From a phage, in the sequence record PZ496580.1: 64,000 bases of DNA; one strand, written 5' to 3'. Shown one piece after another: positions 3,463 through 64,000 of the stretch; within the stretch, counting starts at the first letter, position 1, and each line of letters opens with the position of its first letter. The position numbers were made by a program, and so were the translations under genes. Below the pieces are notes generated by a model that saw only the letters and a program-made list of their open reading frames with translations, did not search any database and was not told where the DNA came from.

Positions 3463-3470
3463 ATAAATAC
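3463..3470 (+). promoter_or_regulatory. T4-type late promoter TATAAATA upstream of gene 36
   Basis: Exact TATAAATA 33 nt upstream of the gp36 ATG. Confidence 0.6.
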
Positions 3471-3502: not shown

Positions 3503-4993
3503 ATGGCAGATTTGAAACATGGATCTACTGTAGGCGGATCTCCCATTTGGACGCAAGGAAACTTGACGATCCAGCCAGCGGGAGATCAGCTTTTCTACAA
3601 AGGTCATAAAATCTATACCGCTTTTGATAGACCTTCGGCTACCGATTTTGATGCTGTTAGTGCATCCGAAGGTGGCACATTTCAAAAGCAAGTTCATTTC
3701 GAGGAAGGTTTAAGCGTAGGTAGCGCATCGGCTGGAGAAACCAAAAAGAATGGTATCTTTAAAGGCCAGAGTGATGCTGCTAATTTTGACGGCGTAAGCT
3801 GGGGTTTGCATTCATGGAAGTCAATCGGCTTTGTTAATGCCCGTGATGGCGTTATCATGGCGTATATTGACACCACAACGGGCGAATTTAAGTCTAAAGG
3901 GACTATCGAAGGGACAACCATTAAAGACACAGGTCAACGCGTCTACAGCCCTGTTAATAAACCGACGAATAATGATTTGGATTTGGTTTCCCGTCGCGGT
4001 GATACTCTCACAGGAACATATAATTTAAACACTGTCACTGTTAAACTATCGGTTGATTCGAAATTAATTGCAAGGGAACGTGATTTAATTAATTTTGATG
4101 CGACTAAGATCTATTATGGTAACGTTCTTGATACGTTGGTCTTCCGAAGTAAAGATGAGCCTACCATTTTTGTTAATGGCAAAGAAGGTCGTTTTTATCA
4201 CACCAACAATAAACCAACTAAAGCCGATGTTGGACTAGGCAATGTCACCAATGATGCACAGGTTAAACGTGCTGGTGATATTATGGAAGGTAACTTGCAA
4301 GCGCCTAGAATGTTGGCGACAAACGATCCTGCTGGTCCTAATGAATTGGTTCGTTTGAGCTACTTTGAGAAAAAATCAATGGTAGCAAATCCAACCATCA
4401 TTGGAAACGTTGATTGGAACACTCTTATTAATCGCGGTATCTATCGTGTGGAAAATGCTGGGTCAGGTACTAACAAACCGTCTGATAGCTATTATAACGG
4501 CGTTTTGATGGTATATCGCCCAGAAGATGCGGTCGGTACTCGTCGAATTGTTCAGGTTTATTATCCTGAATCTATTGACCATCCGATGTGCTGGCGTTCT
4601 TGTTCTAATGAATCATGGACTGCATGGAACTATGTAGATCACCGTAAATTAGCCGATATTCGCTATGTTAACGTAACTGGCGATACCATGACAGGACAGT
4701 TAACTGTTCCGGCTGCAAATGGCGTTAAAACGGCTAGAGGTGCATATAATGGTGATAACTACTATGCTGGGTTAAATAGTGCTGATGGCACGGCTATGAT
4801 TCACCGTATCAGCGATATTAAAGCCACCGAAAAATTGGGTATTACGCACGATTCTAAAGCTGTTTTCATTAAAGCGCGTGGAAATACTCAAGACACAGAC
4901 CGCTATGAACTTTACCACGAAGGCCATAAACCGACACCCGCAGAGGTTGGCGCGGTTCCACTTAATGCGGTGATTGATTTTGGTACTTTCTAA
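3503..4993 (+). CDS. 36: Long tail fiber distal-half connector gp36, enlarged (496 aa vs 221 aa in T4)
   Basis: N-terminus MADLKHGSTVGGSPIWTQGN...PAGD matches remembered T4 gp36 N-terminus MADLKVGSTTGGSVIWHQGN. SD GAGG before ATG. Confidence 0.85.
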   Translation: MADLKHGSTVGGSPIWTQGNLTIQPAGDQLFYKGHKIYTAFDRPSATDFDAVSASEGGTFQKQVHFEEGLSVGSASAGETKKNGIFKGQSDAANFDGVSWGLHSWKSIGFVNARDGVIMAYIDTTTGEFKSKGTIEGTTIKDTGQRVYSPVNKPTNNDLDLVSRRGDTLTGTYNLNTVTVKLSVDSKLIARERDLINFDATKIYYGNVLDTLVFRSKDEPTIFVNGKEGRFYHTNNKPTKADVGLGNVTNDAQVKRAGDIMEGNLQAPRMLATNDPAGPNELVRLSYFEKKSMVANPTIIGNVDWNTLINRGIYRVENAGSGTNKPSDSYYNGVLMVYRPEDAVGTRRIVQVYYPESIDHPMCWRSCSNESWTAWNYVDHRKLADIRYVNVTGDTMTGQLTVPAANGVKTARGAYNGDNYYAGLNSADGTAMIHRISDIKATEKLGITHDSKAVFIKARGNTQDTDRYELYHEGHKPTPAEVGAVPLNAVIDFGTF

Positions 4994-5063: not shown

Positions 5064-7976
5064 ATGGCAGATTTAAGCAGAATCCAATTTAAACGCACTA
5101 GCACTAAAGGTCGTCGACCTGATGCTGGTACGATGAATCCGGGGGAATTGGCAATCAACCTTGCGGATCAATATCTTCTTACTAAAAATGATTCCGGTGC
5201 TATTATCAATTTAAGTTGTCCTCCGGTTTATGACCGCGATGTTACAATGGCTGGTAAAGTTAAAGGTAATAATTATATCTTAAGTAAAACCGCTAACTAT
5301 TTGGAAGACCAGACAGCGAGAGACCTTAACTACTTTGGTGCTTTCCGTACCAATGGTCTTGATGGCTTTCTCGAACTCACGCTAAACGTTCCTCATTCTT
5401 CTGGTGTTCAGCATGGTCGAGGATTTACTTTCCAGTATGGACACACTGGATCACGAGTAGAAACCTATGGCTATAATAGAGAAGGTCAAAAAGCATTTAG
5501 CTATAAAATGTATCACGAAGGTGATAAACCAACTCCTGGAGAATTGAACGTTTACAGCAAACAAGAAGTTGACCGTATGTTTGTTAAAAACGTTAAACTT
5601 GCTACAGTTCCTGTTGATACCGTTGAAGGCTATTTTAAATTAGCAACTGCAATGATTCCACAAAACGGTCGTAGCGTATTTTTCCGTATTCATGGCGGCA
5701 ACGGATATAATGTTACTGCATACGATCAAGTTGATATTGTAGAAATTGTTATTCGCAGTGGAAATAATCGCCCTAAAAGTGTTAACGTTATTGCATATCG
5801 CCGAAATACAAACAAATCATTTGATGTTTTGGCTGTTAATACTTCTGGTGATAACTATGATATCTATGTGAAATATCAGCGTTACACTGATAACGTTATT
5901 GTTGAATTTGGTAAAAGTGTTGATGTTAATCTGGTAGTTCATGACGTTCCAGACTTTGTTGCTGACCGTCCTGCTGGCGATAATGTTATTGGCGGTCGCG
6001 CGGTAACTCTTTTCAACACCGAAAACAAACGCGGTGTATTGAGTTTTGACGATAACACACAAAATAGTTATGATATTGTTCACTTGAGTAATGATAAAGG
6101 TACTGGACGAAAATATATTCGTAAATTCCGTAGCAACTATAACGAAATGATCTGGCATGAGACTGTTCAAGGTAATACATATCGATTGGCAACCGGAACG
6201 ACTGATGCATCGGAAGTTTTTAGAATTACTAGTCGCACCATGTTTACTGGTAAAGGTGTATTTGATGCCGGACAAAACGTTCTTAGATTAGAGCGTCCTA
6301 GTAACCAATCAAACTATATTGAATGGCAAGATCGCCGAAATGGTGCTGATGCTCGTCAAGGTTGGATCGGTTTTGGTAGTGCTGAAACAAATAACTTCCA
6401 ATGGTATAGCGATCACGGAAAAAACTCATTCCAGTTGGATGCTAATGGTCAATGCTCTATTACTACTGGTGCGACCAAAATTGTATATACCAACGGACAA
6501 TATTATTCCGCTAACTCTGATGCATATCGTATGATCTATGGCAATTACGGTGCATTCTGGCGCAATGACGGGACTAAAGTTTATCTTCTTTCCACCAAAG
6601 AAAATGACCGTTTTGGTGGATGGAACGGCAACCGACCATTCATTTACGATTTGACGACTGGTAAAGTTACTTTAGGTGGTGACGGTAACGAAGGTGCATT
6701 AGTTCTTGAAAGAGATAGCCGTGCGGCTAGATTTGCTGGCGACATTTACGTTGGCAAAGGGATGTTAACATTTGATGCCGGACGATTAAATTCTCGTGAT
6801 TACTTCCGGTTTAACCATTGGGGCGATAGCAATAACGCGCGTGATAACATCCTACAGCTTGACGATAGCAAAGGTGCACACTTCACCACTGAACGTACTT
6901 TAGCAACTGGTGCGATTAAAACTAAATTCTTCGGTGATTTGGAATCTGCTGGTCAGATTAAATGGGGTAAAGGGACCGCCACATCTACGTTTACTATACG
7001 TGTTTGGGGTGCTGATGCTCGTAAACAAATATTTGAATGCGGCGATGAAAGCGGGTGGCATTGGTATACACAGCGTGCTGGTGGACCGGGAACTCCCGCA
7101 ATTGATTTTAGTATTAACGGTACTGTAAGGCCGCAAACTATGGATTGTGGCGGTAATATCACCCTTCGTGGTGCTGATATTGAATTTAAACGAAGCGGTA
7201 ACAAGCATTTATGGTTTAGAGATCCAAACGGATTAGAATTGGGTTTGATTTATTGTGATGATGCTGGTGTTATTCGTGTCCGTGGTGAGAAGTCGACCGA
7301 AGTATGGAAATTCTCGGCAAAACAGATTCATTTAGAAACGGGTACTGCCGGAAATGGTGTAGGCTTGCTTCGTGGTGCTGTAGGTGGTGGCGCATGGACT
7401 CAATGGAGAGATCGTGGTACTGGTTTGCAGGTTGACTGTCAGCAATCAGAAAACTCAGCACACAACATATGGCGAGCGACTCATCAAGGCAAATACCATC
7501 TTGCAGCAATGGGTGTTCATGCATCCGGTGGTAGTGTTGCTAATACCGTTGTTAGATTACATGTCCATGACTCAAACTATGATTTCACTGCGGTTGGTGA
7601 CTTCACCGCAGGTCGTAACGGTTCGTTTAACGATGTGTACATTCGTTCTGATGCTCGCCTTAAAATCAACAAGGAAGAGTATAAGGAGAATGCCACCGAT
7701 AAAGTTAATCGCTTGACGGTATATACCTATGACAAGGTTAAATCTTTAACCGACCGTACTGTCATTGCTCATGAAGTTGGTATTATTGCTCAGGATCTTG
7801 AGAAAGAATTGCCAGAAGCAGTAACAACCTCGAAGATCGGCGACGGTGATACACCAGAAGAGATCTTAACAATTTCTAACTCTGCTGTCAACGCTCTTTT
7901 AATTAAGGCGTTTCAGGAAATGAGCGAAGAATTGAAAGCCGTTAAAGCTGAACTAGCGGAACTTAAAAAGAATTAA
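5064..7976 (+). CDS. 37: Long tail fiber distal subunit gp37 (970 aa) with C-terminal intramolecular chaperone domain
   Basis: N-terminus MADLSRIQFKRTSTKGRRPDAGTMNPGELAINL resembles remembered T4 gp37 [28 protein letters not shown]. C-terminus has S-D-A-R-L-K motif and helical tail typical of S74-type auto-chaperones. Confidence 0.9.
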   Translation: MADLSRIQFKRTSTKGRRPDAGTMNPGELAINLADQYLLTKNDSGAIINLSCPPVYDRDVTMAGKVKGNNYILSKTANYLEDQTARDLNYFGAFRTNGLDGFLELTLNVPHSSGVQHGRGFTFQYGHTGSRVETYGYNREGQKAFSYKMYHEGDKPTPGELNVYSKQEVDRMFVKNVKLATVPVDTVEGYFKLATAMIPQNGRSVFFRIHGGNGYNVTAYDQVDIVEIVIRSGNNRPKSVNVIAYRRNTNKSFDVLAVNTSGDNYDIYVKYQRYTDNVIVEFGKSVDVNLVVHDVPDFVADRPAGDNVIGGRAVTLFNTENKRGVLSFDDNTQNSYDIVHLSNDKGTGRKYIRKFRSNYNEMIWHETVQGNTYRLATGTTDASEVFRITSRTMFTGKGVFDAGQNVLRLERPSNQSNYIEWQDRRNGADARQGWIGFGSAETNNFQWYSDHGKNSFQLDANGQCSITTGATKIVYTNGQYYSANSDAYRMIYGNYGAFWRNDGTKVYLLSTKENDRFGGWNGNRPFIYDLTTGKVTLGGDGNEGALVLERDSRAARFAGDIYVGKGMLTFDAGRLNSRDYFRFNHWGDSNNARDNILQLDDSKGAHFTTERTLATGAIKTKFFGDLESAGQIKWGKGTATSTFTIRVWGADARKQIFECGDESGWHWYTQRAGGPGTPAIDFSINGTVRPQTMDCGGNITLRGADIEFKRSGNKHLWFRDPNGLELGLIYCDDAGVIRVRGEKSTEVWKFSAKQIHLETGTAGNGVGLLRGAVGGGAWTQWRDRGTGLQVDCQQSENSAHNIWRATHQGKYHLAAMGVHASGGSVANTVVRLHVHDSNYDFTAVGDFTAGRNGSFNDVYIRSDARLKINKEEYKENATDKVNRLTVYTYDKVKSLTDRTVIAHEVGIIAQDLEKELPEAVTTSKIGDGDTPEEILTISNSAVNALLIKAFQEMSEELKAVKAELAELKKN
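7647..7976 (+). other. Intramolecular chaperone (peptidase S74-like) domain of gp37; predicted autocleavage at Ser of SDARLK
   Basis: ...YIRSDARLKINKEEY...GIIAQDLEKELPEAV...ALLIKAFQEMSEELKAVKAELAELKKN, the pattern of endosialidase/T5 L-fiber C-terminal chaperone domains. Confidence 0.7.
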
Positions 7977-8018: not shown

Positions 8019-8258
8019 ATGGTCTATAATATCGTCATTGGTGCTTTGTCTAGTTTCGGAATGAAACTATTGTCAAAGTTAATTAGTGAAAAGATGCTCA
8101 CTAAAATTTTCTTCTATTGCGCTCGTCGTCTTGCGGCTTATACCAATACGCCAATTGATGATCGTTTTGTGGAAGAACTTTATAAGGAGTTTAATAAAGA
8201 TCAGTCAGAAGATAGTAACGAGCAAGATAAACCTAGTGATAGTCAACTACCTAAATAA
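8019..8258 (+). CDS. Hypothetical 79-aa protein between 37 and t (hydrophobic N-terminus, acidic C-terminus)
   Basis: Strong SD AAGGAG 7 nt before ATG; occupies the slot where T4 has gene 38. Confidence 0.6.
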   Translation: MVYNIVIGALSSFGMKLLSKLISEKMLTKIFFYCARRLAAYTNTPIDDRFVEELYKEFNKDQSEDSNEQDKPSDSQLPK

Positions 8259-8291: not shown

Positions 8292-8948
8292 ATGCAAGTT
8301 TCTGAAAAAGAGAAAGACTTTGCTATCTCAAATGTCCTGCGCGCTATTTTCACAACTAAAAGCACGGAGTTGCTCGTACTTCGTGTTTTTGCTGCCGTCG
8401 TGTTGTCCATATTAGCATTTGTCGTTTATAGTAAAAACGAGTTATTTGCGCTTTATAAAGAGACTCGTTATGAGACTTATGCTCACGTTCTCCAGGTAGA
8501 GAAAGACCGCAATTTTGATAATGCAGCACAGGAGCAGTTACAGATAGTTCATGTGTCGGCTGATGCCGATTTTTCTGCTGTTTTTAGTTTTCGTCCGAAA
8601 AACCTAAACTATTTTGTTGATTTGGTGGCATATGAAGGAAAGCTACCGCATACGATCGATGAAAAGAATTTAGGCGGATTCCCTATCAATAAAACGAGTG
8701 AAGAATATCGTAGGCATCTTTTAGGTAAATCCTATTTTACTGATAAAGATTTCCAGTATATTCCATCGAGGGAGAAAAAATTAGAGAATATCGATATAGG
8801 ATTCATGTATTCTTGTCCTATATTCAATCTCGATAATGTCTATTCTGGTAGTATCGCCATTGCATGGAAGAATAAACCGGATATTGACATTGAGAATTTA
8901 GATACTCTTTGCAATCAATCTGCCAGAATCCTCGGAAGGATTAGATAA
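8292..8948 (+). CDS. t: Holin t (218 aa)
   Basis: Same length as T4 holin t; EQLQIVHVSADADFSAVFSFRPKNLNYFVDLVAYEGKLP and C-terminal ARILGR match remembered T4 T. Confidence 0.9.
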   Translation: MQVSEKEKDFAISNVLRAIFTTKSTELLVLRVFAAVVLSILAFVVYSKNELFALYKETRYETYAHVLQVEKDRNFDNAAQEQLQIVHVSADADFSAVFSFRPKNLNYFVDLVAYEGKLPHTIDEKNLGGFPINKTSEEYRRHLLGKSYFTDKDFQYIPSREKKLENIDIGFMYSCPIFNLDNVYSGSIAIAWKNKPDIDIENLDTLCNQSARILGRIR

Positions 8949-60216: not shown

Positions 60217-60245
60217 ATTATATGATAACCGCATTTTCATGTCAA
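60217..60245 (-). promoter_or_regulatory. Early promoter cassette (TTGACA-N17-TATAAT) with GCGGTTAT-N6-ATAACCGC palindrome over the -10
   Basis: Plus tgtcaa at 60240-60245; palindrome at 60211-60232. Confidence 0.6.
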
Positions 60246-61257: not shown

Positions 61258-61498
61258 AGTTTACCCACTCAACAAGATCTTTACCTAACTCGAAAGCCCA
61301 TTCTCGGTCCTGCTTTACGTTTTGTAGGTATGGACTTTCCGACACTCTACGAAGTGATGTTGTCGTAACAAGAATGATCCCAGGAATGGTCGGATGTTCC
61401 TTGCCATAAACAATAGGACGCGAGTCACTATCAATACCTTGTAAGAAGGTGTATCCTGAATCACTTAGAATCATATACATTTTCATTTCACACATCAC
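61157..61498 (-). CDS. Hypothetical protein (113 aa)
   Basis: ORF in minus-strand array. Confidence 0.5.
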   Translation of the reverse strand: MMCEMKMYMILSDSGYTFLQGIDSDSRPIVYGKEHPTIPGIILVTTTSLRRVSESPYLQNVKQDREWAFELGKDLVEWVNCEDKNQRNHERKIARNVHRKKLDEIKNRILQSM

Positions 61499-61752
61499 AG
61501 TTTCCTCAACCAGTTATTAAAGCGAGCAAACCATGATGCTTTTCGTGCTTCTTTTACTTTATGTGCACGAAAACCACTGAAACACCATTCATAATCATCA
61601 CCGAAACATGATTCAACAGGAACACCCGCATTTCGTAGTTCTCTGGTCTTTATCATGAATCCTTGACATAAGGGGCGACCTTCAACAATGATAGGAAGTT
61701 TAACTTTTTCCATGAAAGTATACCCAGCACGGTCAATAATTTCAATCTTCAT
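61495..61752 (-). CDS. Hypothetical protein (85 aa), tandem paralog of 61771..61968
   Basis: MKIEIIDRAGYTFMEKVKLPIIVEGR vs MKIEIIDDGGFSFMNGVKLPIIVEGR. Confidence 0.55.
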   Translation of the reverse strand: MKIEIIDRAGYTFMEKVKLPIIVEGRPLCQGFMIKTRELRNAGVPVESCFGDDYEWCFSGFRAHKVKEARKASWFARFNNWLRKL

Positions 61753-61770
61753 AATATAATCCTCAATTAG

Positions 61771-61968
61771 TTATACTGCCCATGCTTCATTTGCACGAAA
61801 ACACCATTCATACTCAGGAAAATAACCTTTAATTGGTACGCCAGCTTTTTGTAGTTCCTGCGTTTCTACAAGATAATCAAGCCCATAACGACGACCTTCC
61901 ACAATAATAGGAAGTTTAACGCCATTCATGAAAGAAAATCCACCATCATCAATAATTTCAATTTTCAT
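61771..61968 (-). CDS. Hypothetical protein (65 aa), tandem paralog
   Basis: See 61495..61752. Confidence 0.55.
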   Translation of the reverse strand: MKIEIIDDGGFSFMNGVKLPIIVEGRRYGLDYLVETQELQKAGVPIKGYFPEYEWCFRANEAWAV

Positions 61969-62213
61969 TTTACATTGTCTCCATAGATCTTTCCATCAAT
62001 ACCAATTTCACCAGCACGAACATCTAGGATAAGATGCGGTAGGTGTATGCAGTTTTCCCACCCTACGCGCTTCATTTCTGAAACAGTGACGTAAGCCCAT
62101 CCGTTCGCTGTAATAAAGTCTACTTCAACCTTGAGAGGAAAGCAAGACTTTTCTATGTTTTCAAATCCGACAATGTGTTTTGTCGTTGAATATGGAATAT
62201 ATCCGGTGATCAT
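61965..62213 (-). CDS. Hypothetical protein (82 aa)
   Basis: ORF, ATGA overlap with downstream ORF. Confidence 0.5.
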   Translation of the reverse strand: MITGYIPYSTTKHIVGFENIEKSCFPLKVEVDFITANGWAYVTVSEMKRVGWENCIHLPHLILDVRAGEIGIDGKIYGDNVK

Positions 62214-62671
62214 TTTGTGATCTCCTTATACTCAACACACCATAAACGGGTCGCCCATGATAAACGCTCATAACGCTGGCAGAAATCAGACCATAGATAT
62301 TGTGTACCGTCTTGCATAGTTGAAATATGCGTTTTCTCTCCTACTTTCACGAATGAAGTATTCGATTTTGTGATCTCGACCGGAGTATATCCGAAAGCTG
62401 GTTCCAAGTCAACATCTGAACTAAATGCTAATTTAACAGAATTTGTTTTTCTGACCGCTGTCCGGTTTCCTTCTGGGTATAGCACAGCAGGTTTAGCGCC
62501 TAAGCGGATAAACTCAGTGTTTTTAATGAACAGAATATCATGATAACCGTCATATTCCGACACTTCCATAGTAACAGGAAAATCGACATGTTCTAAACCT
62601 GGTAGATCTCGCATATCATGAAATGTAGCCATCAACTTTTTCATCTTGTATTCCTCACTCTTCTGTTTCAT
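62210..62671 (-). CDS. Hypothetical protein (153 aa)
   Basis: ORF in minus-strand array. Confidence 0.5.
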   Translation of the reverse strand: MKQKSEEYKMKKLMATFHDMRDLPGLEHVDFPVTMEVSEYDGYHDILFIKNTEFIRLGAKPAVLYPEGNRTAVRKTNSVKLAFSSDVDLEPAFGYTPVEITKSNTSFVKVGEKTHISTMQDGTQYLWSDFCQRYERLSWATRLWCVEYKEITK

Positions 62672-62852
62672 TTCTTTTATATGGTACTATAACAGGATTA
62701 ATACAGCAAGCACCAATTACGTTATGAGCACCACAATTTAAGCATTTATAATCATGGAACTTATTAAGGAATCGACCAAACTCATAGCCGACTAACGCCG
62801 CGTGTACTTGAGTCTCGATCTCATCCATATCAGCCAATGTTTTAACCTTCAT
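62655..62852 (-). CDS. Small zinc-finger protein (65 aa from ATG at 62852; track start 62891)
   Basis: ATG at 62852 preceded by GAGGATTATATT; CLNCGAHNVIGACC motif. Confidence 0.45.
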   Translation of the reverse strand: MKVKTLADMDEIETQVHAALVGYEFGRFLNKFHDYKCLNCGAHNVIGACCINPVIVPYKRNETEE

Positions 62853-62862
62853 AATATAATCC

Positions 62863-63153
62863 TCAAATGGTAGTTTTGCGAAGATGGTCATTACATGCTT
62901 TTAATGCATCAGTCGCGGTGTCATAGCGAGTATTATCATAGCACCAGTAACCATCTGTCAACTGATAAATCAATCCGTCCCTTTTAGCTTCGATGAAAGA
63001 TAACTCTTTGAAAGTTTCTACTTTCTTTGCTGATACTCCACGGTCACGGCGCTTATAGAGTTTAGCTAAAATGCGTTCAGCTTGTTCCTCTTTATCACCA
63101 GACAGATCCCAAATAATGTTGCGGATATGTTTGATTAATTGTTCAGTGGTCAT
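62863..63153 (-). CDS. Hypothetical protein (96 aa)
   Basis: ORF with conserved UTR/SD AAGGAGAATCAAAG before ATG. Confidence 0.5.
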   Translation of the reverse strand: MTTEQLIKHIRNIIWDLSGDKEEQAERILAKLYKRRDRGVSAKKVETFKELSFIEAKRDGLIYQLTDGYWCYDNTRYDTATDALKACNDHLRKTTI

Positions 63154-63182
63154 CTTTGATTCTCCTTAGTTGGTATGTGTGC

Positions 63183-63210
63183 ATTATAGCATTGTGATTA
63201 TCTTTGTCAA
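63183..63210 (-). promoter_or_regulatory. sigma70 consensus promoter (TTGACA-N16-TATAAT)
   Basis: Plus tgtcaa at 63205-63210 and attata at 63183-63188. Confidence 0.6.
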
Positions 63211-63215
63211 CACCC

Positions 63216-63247
63216 AAAAACAAAAAGGCTACCCCGAAGGATAGCCC
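63216..63247 (-). terminator. Rho-independent terminator after the gp38-like gene
   Basis: Minus GGGCTATCC-TTCG-GGGTAGCC hairpin followed by TTTTTGTTTTT. Confidence 0.7.
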
Positions 63248-63253
63248 ATAAAA

Positions 63254-64000
63254 TTACACGCGAGCACCGTAGATCGTGCCTACTTTATCCCAGCGAGGGG
63301 CATTGCCAGTAACAGCCTTACCAGCTGCGCCACCCGAGTGAACAGTTCCTCCAGTACCACCTTGAATATATGAAGATTTGCCAGCAGACCCCAAATCTCC
63401 ACCATTTCCTCCATAGTGAACCCCAGAAACAGTGCCTTTACCTGGGGCAGAAATTGTACCAGCAGATGCTGCCGCTGCGCCGCCTCCTGCCTTACCAGCA
63501 GCACCAAATGGACGGCCTCCGCCGCCTCCAAATATCATATCCATTTGAGGGAAAGGATGGTATCTAGCACCAGCACCGCCACCACCGCCACCACCAATAA
63601 TACCATTATTGTTTATTCTTAAACGAGTTCCAATTCCGTTATTTATTGCATTTCCTCCTGCTCCACCAGCAGAGTTACTTCCGCCATTTCCTCCCCGACC
63701 TAATACATGAACACCAGAGTTAATGATTAGTGTCACATATTCATTTGTTAGTGAGCTAGGGAAATCAAGACAAGGAACGCCAGTAGATTGGGAAACAATA
63801 TTACCTGTGATAGTAATTACTACCGGAGTAGATCCTTGTGCTTTCATCCAGTTAATAAGAGTGTCTTTATTGTAAGAGTTACTAGCGCCAATGCTATAAT
63901 GAATCTCTTTAGAACGTCCGACCATCGCTGACATATACGCCGGACGACCTAAGCGTACAGCTTGCATTGCGGCGCTCATCCACCGTTGACCAGTCTCAGA
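63254..64000 (-). CDS. gp38-like glycine-rich receptor-binding adhesin, C-terminal ~248 codons (5' end outside window)
   Basis: Frame open to window edge; ...SETGQRWMSAAMQAVRLG...GRSKEIHYSIGA... resembles the conserved N-domain of T2-type gp38 as remembered; multiple glycine-rich tracts (GRGGNGGSNSAGGAGG, GGGGGGGAG, FGGGGGRPFGAAGKAGGG). Confidence 0.55.
   Translation of the reverse strand, partial: SETGQRWMSAAMQAVRLGRPAYMSAMVGRSKEIHYSIGASNSYNKDTLINWMKAQGSTPVVITITGNIVSQSTGVPCLDFPSSLTNEYVTLIINSGVHVLGRGGNGGSNSAGGAGGNAINNGIGTRLRINNNGIIGGGGGGGAGARYHPFPQMDMIFGGGGGRPFGAAGKAGGGAAAASAGTISAPGKGTVSGVHYGGNGGDLGSAGKSSYIQGGTGGTVHSGGAAGKAVTGNAPRWDKVGTIYGARV

Follow-up and report, generated by a model that had tools for sequence, protein, structure and literature searches.

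A predicted gp38-type tail-fibre adhesin gene displaced to the early strand of a Krischvirus (RB49-like) phage

The 64,000-nucleotide stretch of phage DNA analysed here (sequence record PZ496580.1, hereafter the window) ends within a glycine-rich open reading frame (ORF) on its minus strand. By homology to characterized proteins this ORF is assigned as encoding a long-tail-fibre adhesin of the T2/S16 gp38 type. We consider it nearly certain that it is the genuine gene 38 (g38) of a Krischvirus phage and that its product is an ordinary gp38 tip adhesin whose gene was displaced in an ancestor. Displacement of g38 in RB49-like phages is already known and is their normal published arrangement. Here we describe the gene, its flanks and its distribution among relatives, and weigh other explanations for the presence of an adhesin gene among early genes.

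Results

The glycine-rich ORF belongs to the gp38 family

The g38 frame was open from position 64000 to a stop codon at 63256-63254 on the minus strand, giving 248 residues plus the stop. The fragment starts with SETGQRWMSAAMQAVRLGRPAYMSAMVGRSKEIHY (SETGQRWMS...GRSKEIHY), and alignment to relatives placed 13 further N-terminal residues, MAIKAGWVGSSAV, past the window edge. An ATG at 63979, proposed as the start by the ORF finder, was rejected because the relatives' proteins begin 13 residues before the fragment. Glycine accounted for 23.4% of all residues in the fragment, rising to 33.8% over the C-terminal 148, compared with a mean of 5.9% over the 51 long ORF segments of the window, and the runs included G7 (residues 136-142), G5 (158-162) and G3 (172-174). 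The earlier note, made from the DNA letters, had described a minus-strand polyglycine ORF with this N-terminal segment; the description was confirmed, the fragment being the most glycine-rich of the 51 segments.

Profile and structure-database searches substantiated the resemblance to T2-type gp38 adhesins that had also been proposed there. The fragment matched the Pfam family GP38 (PF05268) over profile positions 1-218 of 218 with E=1.7e-70 and 237.7 bits, where the curated cut-off is 25 bits. The N-terminal attachment domain Gp38_N (PF21721) was matched by the truncated fragment at profile positions 14-40 of 40 (E=2e-9, 37.7 bits) and by the full-length homologue from phage W115 at positions 1-40 (E=3.9e-18, 65.6 bits). 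When the W115 protein was compared with S16 gp38, as the earlier note had suggested for the gene product, its residues 1-259 aligned to residues 1-247 of 6F45_D, the full length of that chain, with E=8.6e-49; a second gp38 structure, 9V85, was matched as well. AlphaFold2 run on the 248-residue fragment as a single sequence, with no alignment, returned a pLDDT of 33 and a pTM of 0.26, too low for a fold search. The full-length match to the solved S16 protein settles homology without a structure model. Within the region that aligns residue by residue to the S16 polyglycine domain, glycine-rich motifs alternated with variable segments, the sequence-level hallmark of the polyglycine sandwich fold, and differences between alleles clustered there. 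A tblastn search of the 64-kb window found no second gp38-like sequence. The coordinates of g38 and of the other features discussed below are collected in Table 1.

Table 1. Features of the tail-fibre locus and of the g38 locus in the window
Feature	Position	Strand	Details
Gene 37, distal long-tail-fibre subunit (gp38 attachment partner)	5064..7976	+	Pfam Gp34_trimer and Peptidase_S74
79-aa ORF (Dc5-like), in the slot where T-even phages have gene 38	8019..8258	+	Annotated Dc5 in RB49 and kvi
Holin t	8292..8948	+	Pfam Phage_holin_T, E=4.9e-61
Small early ORF, 96 aa	62863..63153	-	First downstream of g38; right-hand border of the g38 insertion
Consensus sigma-70 early promoter	63183..63210	-	TTGACA, 16-nt spacer, TATAAT, with TG; 12/12 hexamer matches
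Intrinsic terminator directly after g38	63216..63247	-	9-bp stem, UUCG loop, U5GU5 tail; hairpin 63247-63226
Gene 38 (predicted gp38 long-tail-fibre tip adhesin), partial	63254..64000	-	Codons 14-261 and stop codon; first 13 codons past the window edge
Predicted N-terminal gp37-attachment domain of gp38	63920..64000	-	Fragment residues 1-27, truncated by the window edge; Gp38_N
Putative glycine-rich receptor-binding region of gp38	63320..63700	-	Glycine runs; aligns to S16 gp38 polyglycine domain

The window comes from a mosaic relative of phage Brandy

Positions 62000-64000 matched 92 phage records, the best being Enterobacteria phage Brandy at 98.7% DNA identity, and the best matches all belonged to Krischvirus, the RB49-like genus of the Straboviridae. 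At the amino-acid level the gp38 fragment was 100% identical to that of Brandy (Brandy49), 97.6% to W115, 84% to GEC-3S and 77% to RB49. The gene 37 and holin region was nearest to phage Sf20 (97.7%), with Brandy at 95%, and the phage is therefore a mosaic relative of Brandy, not Brandy itself. Database labels for the same gene varied from "hypothetical protein" through "tail assembly protein" and "distal long tail fiber assembly catalyst" to "tail fiber adhesin".

Gene 37 carries its own chaperone domain and is not followed by gene 38

The distance from g38 to gene 37 was 55.3 kb, with the two genes on opposite strands and g38 inside the early-gene array, in agreement with the roughly 55 kb reported earlier. 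The Peptidase_S74 intramolecular chaperone domain occupied residues 862-921 of gp37, and the last 115 residues matched the C-terminus of S16 gp37 (6F45_A, E=1.5e-4), SDxRLK motif included. Gene 37 was followed by the 79-aa Dc5-like ORF, which had no Pfam match and is mentioned in PMC3157838, and then by holin t; gene 38 was not there. The earlier statements that gene 37 has its own chaperone domain and that no gene 38 follows it both held. A self-cleaving chaperone domain on gp37 combined with a separate gp38 adhesin is the standard design of T2, S16 and RB49 (PMC9569957), so the presence of both in this phage is neither a conflict nor an anomaly.

Phage KFS-EC likewise has its g38 on the early strand, but the C-terminus of its gene 37 is different. 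After its gene 37 (L007:4071-4500) lies a 107-aa glycine-containing ORF, possibly with a frameshifted continuation; as a candidate second adhesin this ORF was rejected, having neither gp38 similarity nor a Pfam match.

g38 lies between a short upstream hairpin and a strong terminator with an early promoter

A strong terminator at the end of g38 had been noted previously, and the hairpin found there had a predicted stability of -14.7 kcal/mol (z = -3.3) and was conserved in GEC-3S, W115, Brandy and RB49. The promoter beyond it serves the next early ORF in a row of small minus-strand ORFs. Terminator and promoter together form an element like the PeSLs, the promoter-early stem-loops of RB49 and phi1, whose anatomy was described by Arbiol et al. 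2010 (PMC2839356).

As the sequence ends at 64000, the upstream context of the window's phage was deduced from relatives. On the g38 strand of Brandy, W115, GEC-3S and RB49, the upstream DNA ran through a 73-aa ORF with a sigma-70 promoter of its own, another four small ORFs, rI.-1, rI and tk. The 54 nt immediately upstream of g38 (L002:7905-7958; the same region of L001, L003 and L008) were almost invariant in four phages; a ribosome-binding site and a short GC hairpin were all that they contained, and neither an early nor a late promoter was present. The hairpin lay 20 nt upstream of the g38 ATG and read GCCCC-TTAAWT-GGGGC-TTTTCTT, its 5-bp GC stem closing a 6-nt loop and leading into the tail UUUUCUU; it was short and weak, whereas the downstream hairpin was a classic strong terminator. 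Both flanks were nearly invariant across the four phages, and the C-terminal domain of gp38 varied.

These data bear on the possibility, raised in the earlier note, of a second tail-fibre locus just past the window, such as one with another gene 37 ahead of g38. The one point in its favour is that the edge of the window cuts the ORF and hides its upstream context. The upstream DNA of Brandy, the 98.7% identical relative, and of W115, GEC-3S and RB49 contained no second gene 37 or other fibre gene, its content being small early ORFs, rI and tk, and the hairpin described above sits just ahead of g38. We give a second fibre locus practically no chance of being correct. Extension through the relatives, which had been recommended, thus recovered the 5' end of g38 (13 residues) and early ORFs with a sigma-70 promoter, and not a second gene 37.

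More broadly, the minus strand between 56000 and 64000 was dense in sigma-70 promoters, with 38 promoter-like sites where 22 were expected. The sites, including 60217-60245 and 63183-63210, were consensus or near-consensus, and several adjoined stem-loops, resembling the hyperplastic, PeSL-rich regions known from RB49 and phi1. In this stretch of minus-strand genes, two neighbouring small early ORFs (61495-61752 and 61771-61968, both minus strand) were clear paralogues (MKIEIID..F.FM..VKLPIIVEGR...), and the N-terminus of the 73-aa ORF upstream of g38 in the relatives was loosely similar to theirs.

Some relatives have an empty early-strand site

We found 44 phage records in which g38 lies between the same 73-aa and 96-aa early ORFs, carriers including RB49, Phi1, JSE, GEC-3S, ECD7 and KFS-EC. 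The filled site spans ~1545 nt in these 44 records, versus 669 nt for an empty site present in at least eight listed records (kvi, FL15, KMB43, Skers, UPWr_E1, G5211, G2248 and LF73P4) and in MIZ4. At the empty site the 96-aa ORF directly follows the 73-aa ORF, the two being separated by one PeSL only, in which the stem-loop falls between the -35 and -10 boxes; in MIZ4 (L006:2500-2566) this element reads TTGACA-cggggagaaatccccg-TATAAT. Phages kvi (L005:3712-4491) and FL04 (L004:3900-4682) had a T2-type g38 between gene 37 and the Dc5-like ORF, and kvi combined this g38 beside gene 37 with an empty early-strand site. In the five phages inspected, g38 occupied one of the two sites and never both. 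The DNA of g38 itself was 82-88% identical to g38 of Tequatrovirus-like phages, and the flanking DNA had no such match. The early-strand arrangement is fixed in most of Krischvirus.

Examined as a possible PeSL cassette, the g38 locus was complete on its downstream side and had only the 5-bp GC hairpin on its upstream side, the nearest upstream promoter in the relatives being the one that precedes the 73-aa ORF. Presence/absence polymorphism between close relatives and a single PeSL at the empty site were both found. The locus could be read as an actively mobile cassette, excised and inserted by way of PeSLs, that serves host-range switching within a phage population. Consistent with such mobility, g38 has a hairpin on one side and a hairpin with an early promoter on the other; in some members of the genus the early-strand site is precisely empty apart from one PeSL, and g38 is found beside gene 37 instead; the gene resembles its Tequatrovirus-like counterparts in DNA and its flanks do not; and PeSL-flanked ORFs form mini-circles in RB49 and phi1 (PMC2839356). 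However, the upstream hairpin without a promoter is an incomplete PeSL, g38 is not mentioned among the mini-circle cases of PMC2839356, and the five phages inspected had the gene at one site or the other, not at both. The position was moreover identical in all 44 carriers, which argues for one old event and against ongoing movement. We therefore judge active mobility to be unlikely.

The relocated adhesin cassette of the earlier note stands as evolutionary history, which was published in 2011 (PMC3157838), where Trojet et al. described RB49 g38 as "displaced to a distant locus"; of an active host-range switch there is no sign. The empty sites, the invariant flanks and the Tequatrovirus-like g38 would instead fit an old exchange via promoter/stem-loop elements, a process that Arbiol et al. 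2010 (PMC2839356) proposed for other ORFs.

No late-promoter motif lies near g38 in relatives

We searched for late promoters in the upstream DNA of four relatives. Neither the motif TATAAATA nor ATAAATA occurred between rI and g38 in GEC-3S, W115, Brandy or RB49, and the nearest late-promoter motifs were upstream of rI, 2.6 kb from g38. Similarly, the nearest predicted late promoter of RB49, Pl:48756, lies upstream of rI (Nolan et al. 2006). Together these results imply that the gene for a virion protein appears to be without the usual late signal. Inspection by eye of the interval between the upstream hairpin and the g38 ATG revealed no usable MotA-box arrangement for a middle promoter.

The late-promoter core ATAAATA was strongly avoided in the 64-kb window, with 2 copies versus 22.9 ± 4.5 expected. 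A copy at 3463-3469 on the plus strand preceded the ORF at 3503 by 34 nt; from its position we take this ORF to be gene 36. The motif also occurred inside g38 (63640-63646, minus strand, the sense strand), but was rejected as an internal promoter since no in-frame start codon follows it. It was present in the W115 and Brandy alleles and absent from those of GEC-3S and RB49, and is probably a chance occurrence.

Transcription of g38 could proceed by read-through of the weak upstream hairpin, with initiation either at the sigma-70 promoter ~350 nt ahead of the gene or at the late promoter of rI, 2.6 kb away. Transcript timing data for RB49-like phages were not found in the literature. A bolder reading, which we consider less likely than not, is that the virion adhesin gene of RB49-type phages has no late promoter and would be transcribed early from a sigma-70 promoter, with partial read-through of the short attenuator hairpin, yielding a structural fibre component early and in low quantity. 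On this reading g38 would also be a unit bounded by PeSLs and open to loss and replacement, as is suggested by the empty sites of kvi-type relatives.

Published genetics support a fibre-tip role for gp38

In RB49-like phages gp38 is the long-tail-fibre receptor-binding protein (Golomidova et al. 2022, PMC9569957). In that study the only changes in spontaneous RB49 host-range mutants were E230K, or E230K with Y231S, in gp38; the OmpA dependence of RB49-like phages was assigned to the long tail fibre; and Brandy49 gp38 was modelled and discussed as a fibre adhesin, the receptor of this broad-host-range phage being neither OmpA nor the O antigen. The accessible part of a 2025 study (PMC12032242) gives receptors for twelve other phages and names none for FL37 and FL38, whose gp38 is 97.6% identical.

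These observations allowed us to evaluate a further suggestion of the earlier note, that the protein is not a virion component but a soluble receptor-binding decoy or superinfection-blocking factor made early in infection. Its early-strand location, the sigma-70 promoter and small ORF that precede it, and the lack of a late-promoter motif within 2.6 kb would all suit such a role. Several lines of evidence point the other way. The gp37-docking N-terminal domain has been kept, this is the only gp38-like sequence in the window, and the cleavable chaperone design of gp37 needs a separate adhesin. Inspection of the sequence revealed no signal peptide or membrane segment by which gp38 might reach the outer membrane from within the cell. 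In addition, it was the displaced gp38, and nothing else, that changed in the spontaneous RB49 host-range mutants (PMC9569957). An early decoy for superinfection exclusion is thus without support and we consider it highly improbable.

We favour instead a virion adhesin that works as in S16 and T2. Trimeric gp37 would fold with the help of its C-terminal Peptidase_S74 chaperone domain, which would then cut itself off. As the S16 structure and the genetics of RB49 indicate, one gp38 monomer would then dock on the exposed gp37 tip by its conserved N-terminal domain, and its C-terminal glycine-rich domain would present variable loops to the host receptor. Domain content and homology follow from the searches above; docking and receptor binding we infer for the gp38 of the window's phage. 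In the ancestor of RB49-type phages, g38 would have moved into a hyperplastic region on the early strand, where it now sits as a single-gene unit between the short upstream hairpin and the downstream terminator with its early promoter.

Discussion

The 2011 report of Trojet et al., the work of Golomidova et al. 2022 and a remark in the 2025 study that places the gp38 genes of FL37 and FL38 away from the holin (PMC12032242) mean that the displaced gp38 was already known. Displacement of g38 illustrates in textbook fashion how modules are shuffled among T4-type genomes, and the present case adds nothing new to this. The empty-site polymorphism, the invariance of the flanks, the resemblance of g38 to its Tequatrovirus-like counterparts, the short upstream hairpin and the absence of a late-promoter motif between rI and g38 go slightly beyond the published accounts that we found. 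Of some value is the question of how and when an early-strand structural gene that has no late promoter is expressed.

Therapeutic cocktails make use of Krischvirus phages. Correct naming of g38 matters for annotation, as this gene is the phage's predicted host-range determinant and yet is labelled hypothetical or "assembly catalyst" in several records. The gp38 allele of the window is identical to that of Brandy49, a phage of broad host range.

Comparison with known systems

The T4 protein of the same name is a folding chaperone that acts in tail-fibre assembly, is related to lambda Tfa and is absent from the virion. It is unrelated to RB49-type gp38, with which it shares only the gene number and the link to gp37, and the chaperone labels on RB49-type g38 are a misannotation carried over from T4 gp38.

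S16 gp38 (6F45 chain D) is the structural archetype, with a polyglycine-rich receptor-binding domain, and shares the N-terminal docking domain and the glycine-rich motifs with the protein of the window; S16 gp37 likewise has the same C-terminal chaperone domain as the window's gp37. The variable loops of S16 gp38 differ, so the receptor is probably different. A further difference is one of position: in S16 and the T-even phages g38 directly follows gene 37 in a late transcription unit, whereas here it is distant. The T2/T6-type gp38 found in kvi and FL04 belongs to the same family and has the same fibre-tip role, with ~48-52% identity to the W115 homologue and an N-terminal domain of the T2 type (MAVVGVPGWIGSSAANETGQRWMSQAAGQLRLG...).

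Like the PeSLs of RB49 and phi1, the element downstream of g38 combines a stable stem-loop rich in GC with a consensus sigma-70 promoter, a Shine-Dalgarno sequence and a start codon. The upstream flank differs in having a hairpin without a promoter, and PeSL cassettes typically carry ORFans, whereas g38 is predicted to be an essential structural gene.

The closest counterparts are the gp38 genes of RB49, Phi1, JSE, GEC-3S and Brandy49. The gene, the locus, the flanking ORFs, the hairpins and the promoter are all shared with the window, and from RB49-type gp38 there is no substantive difference.
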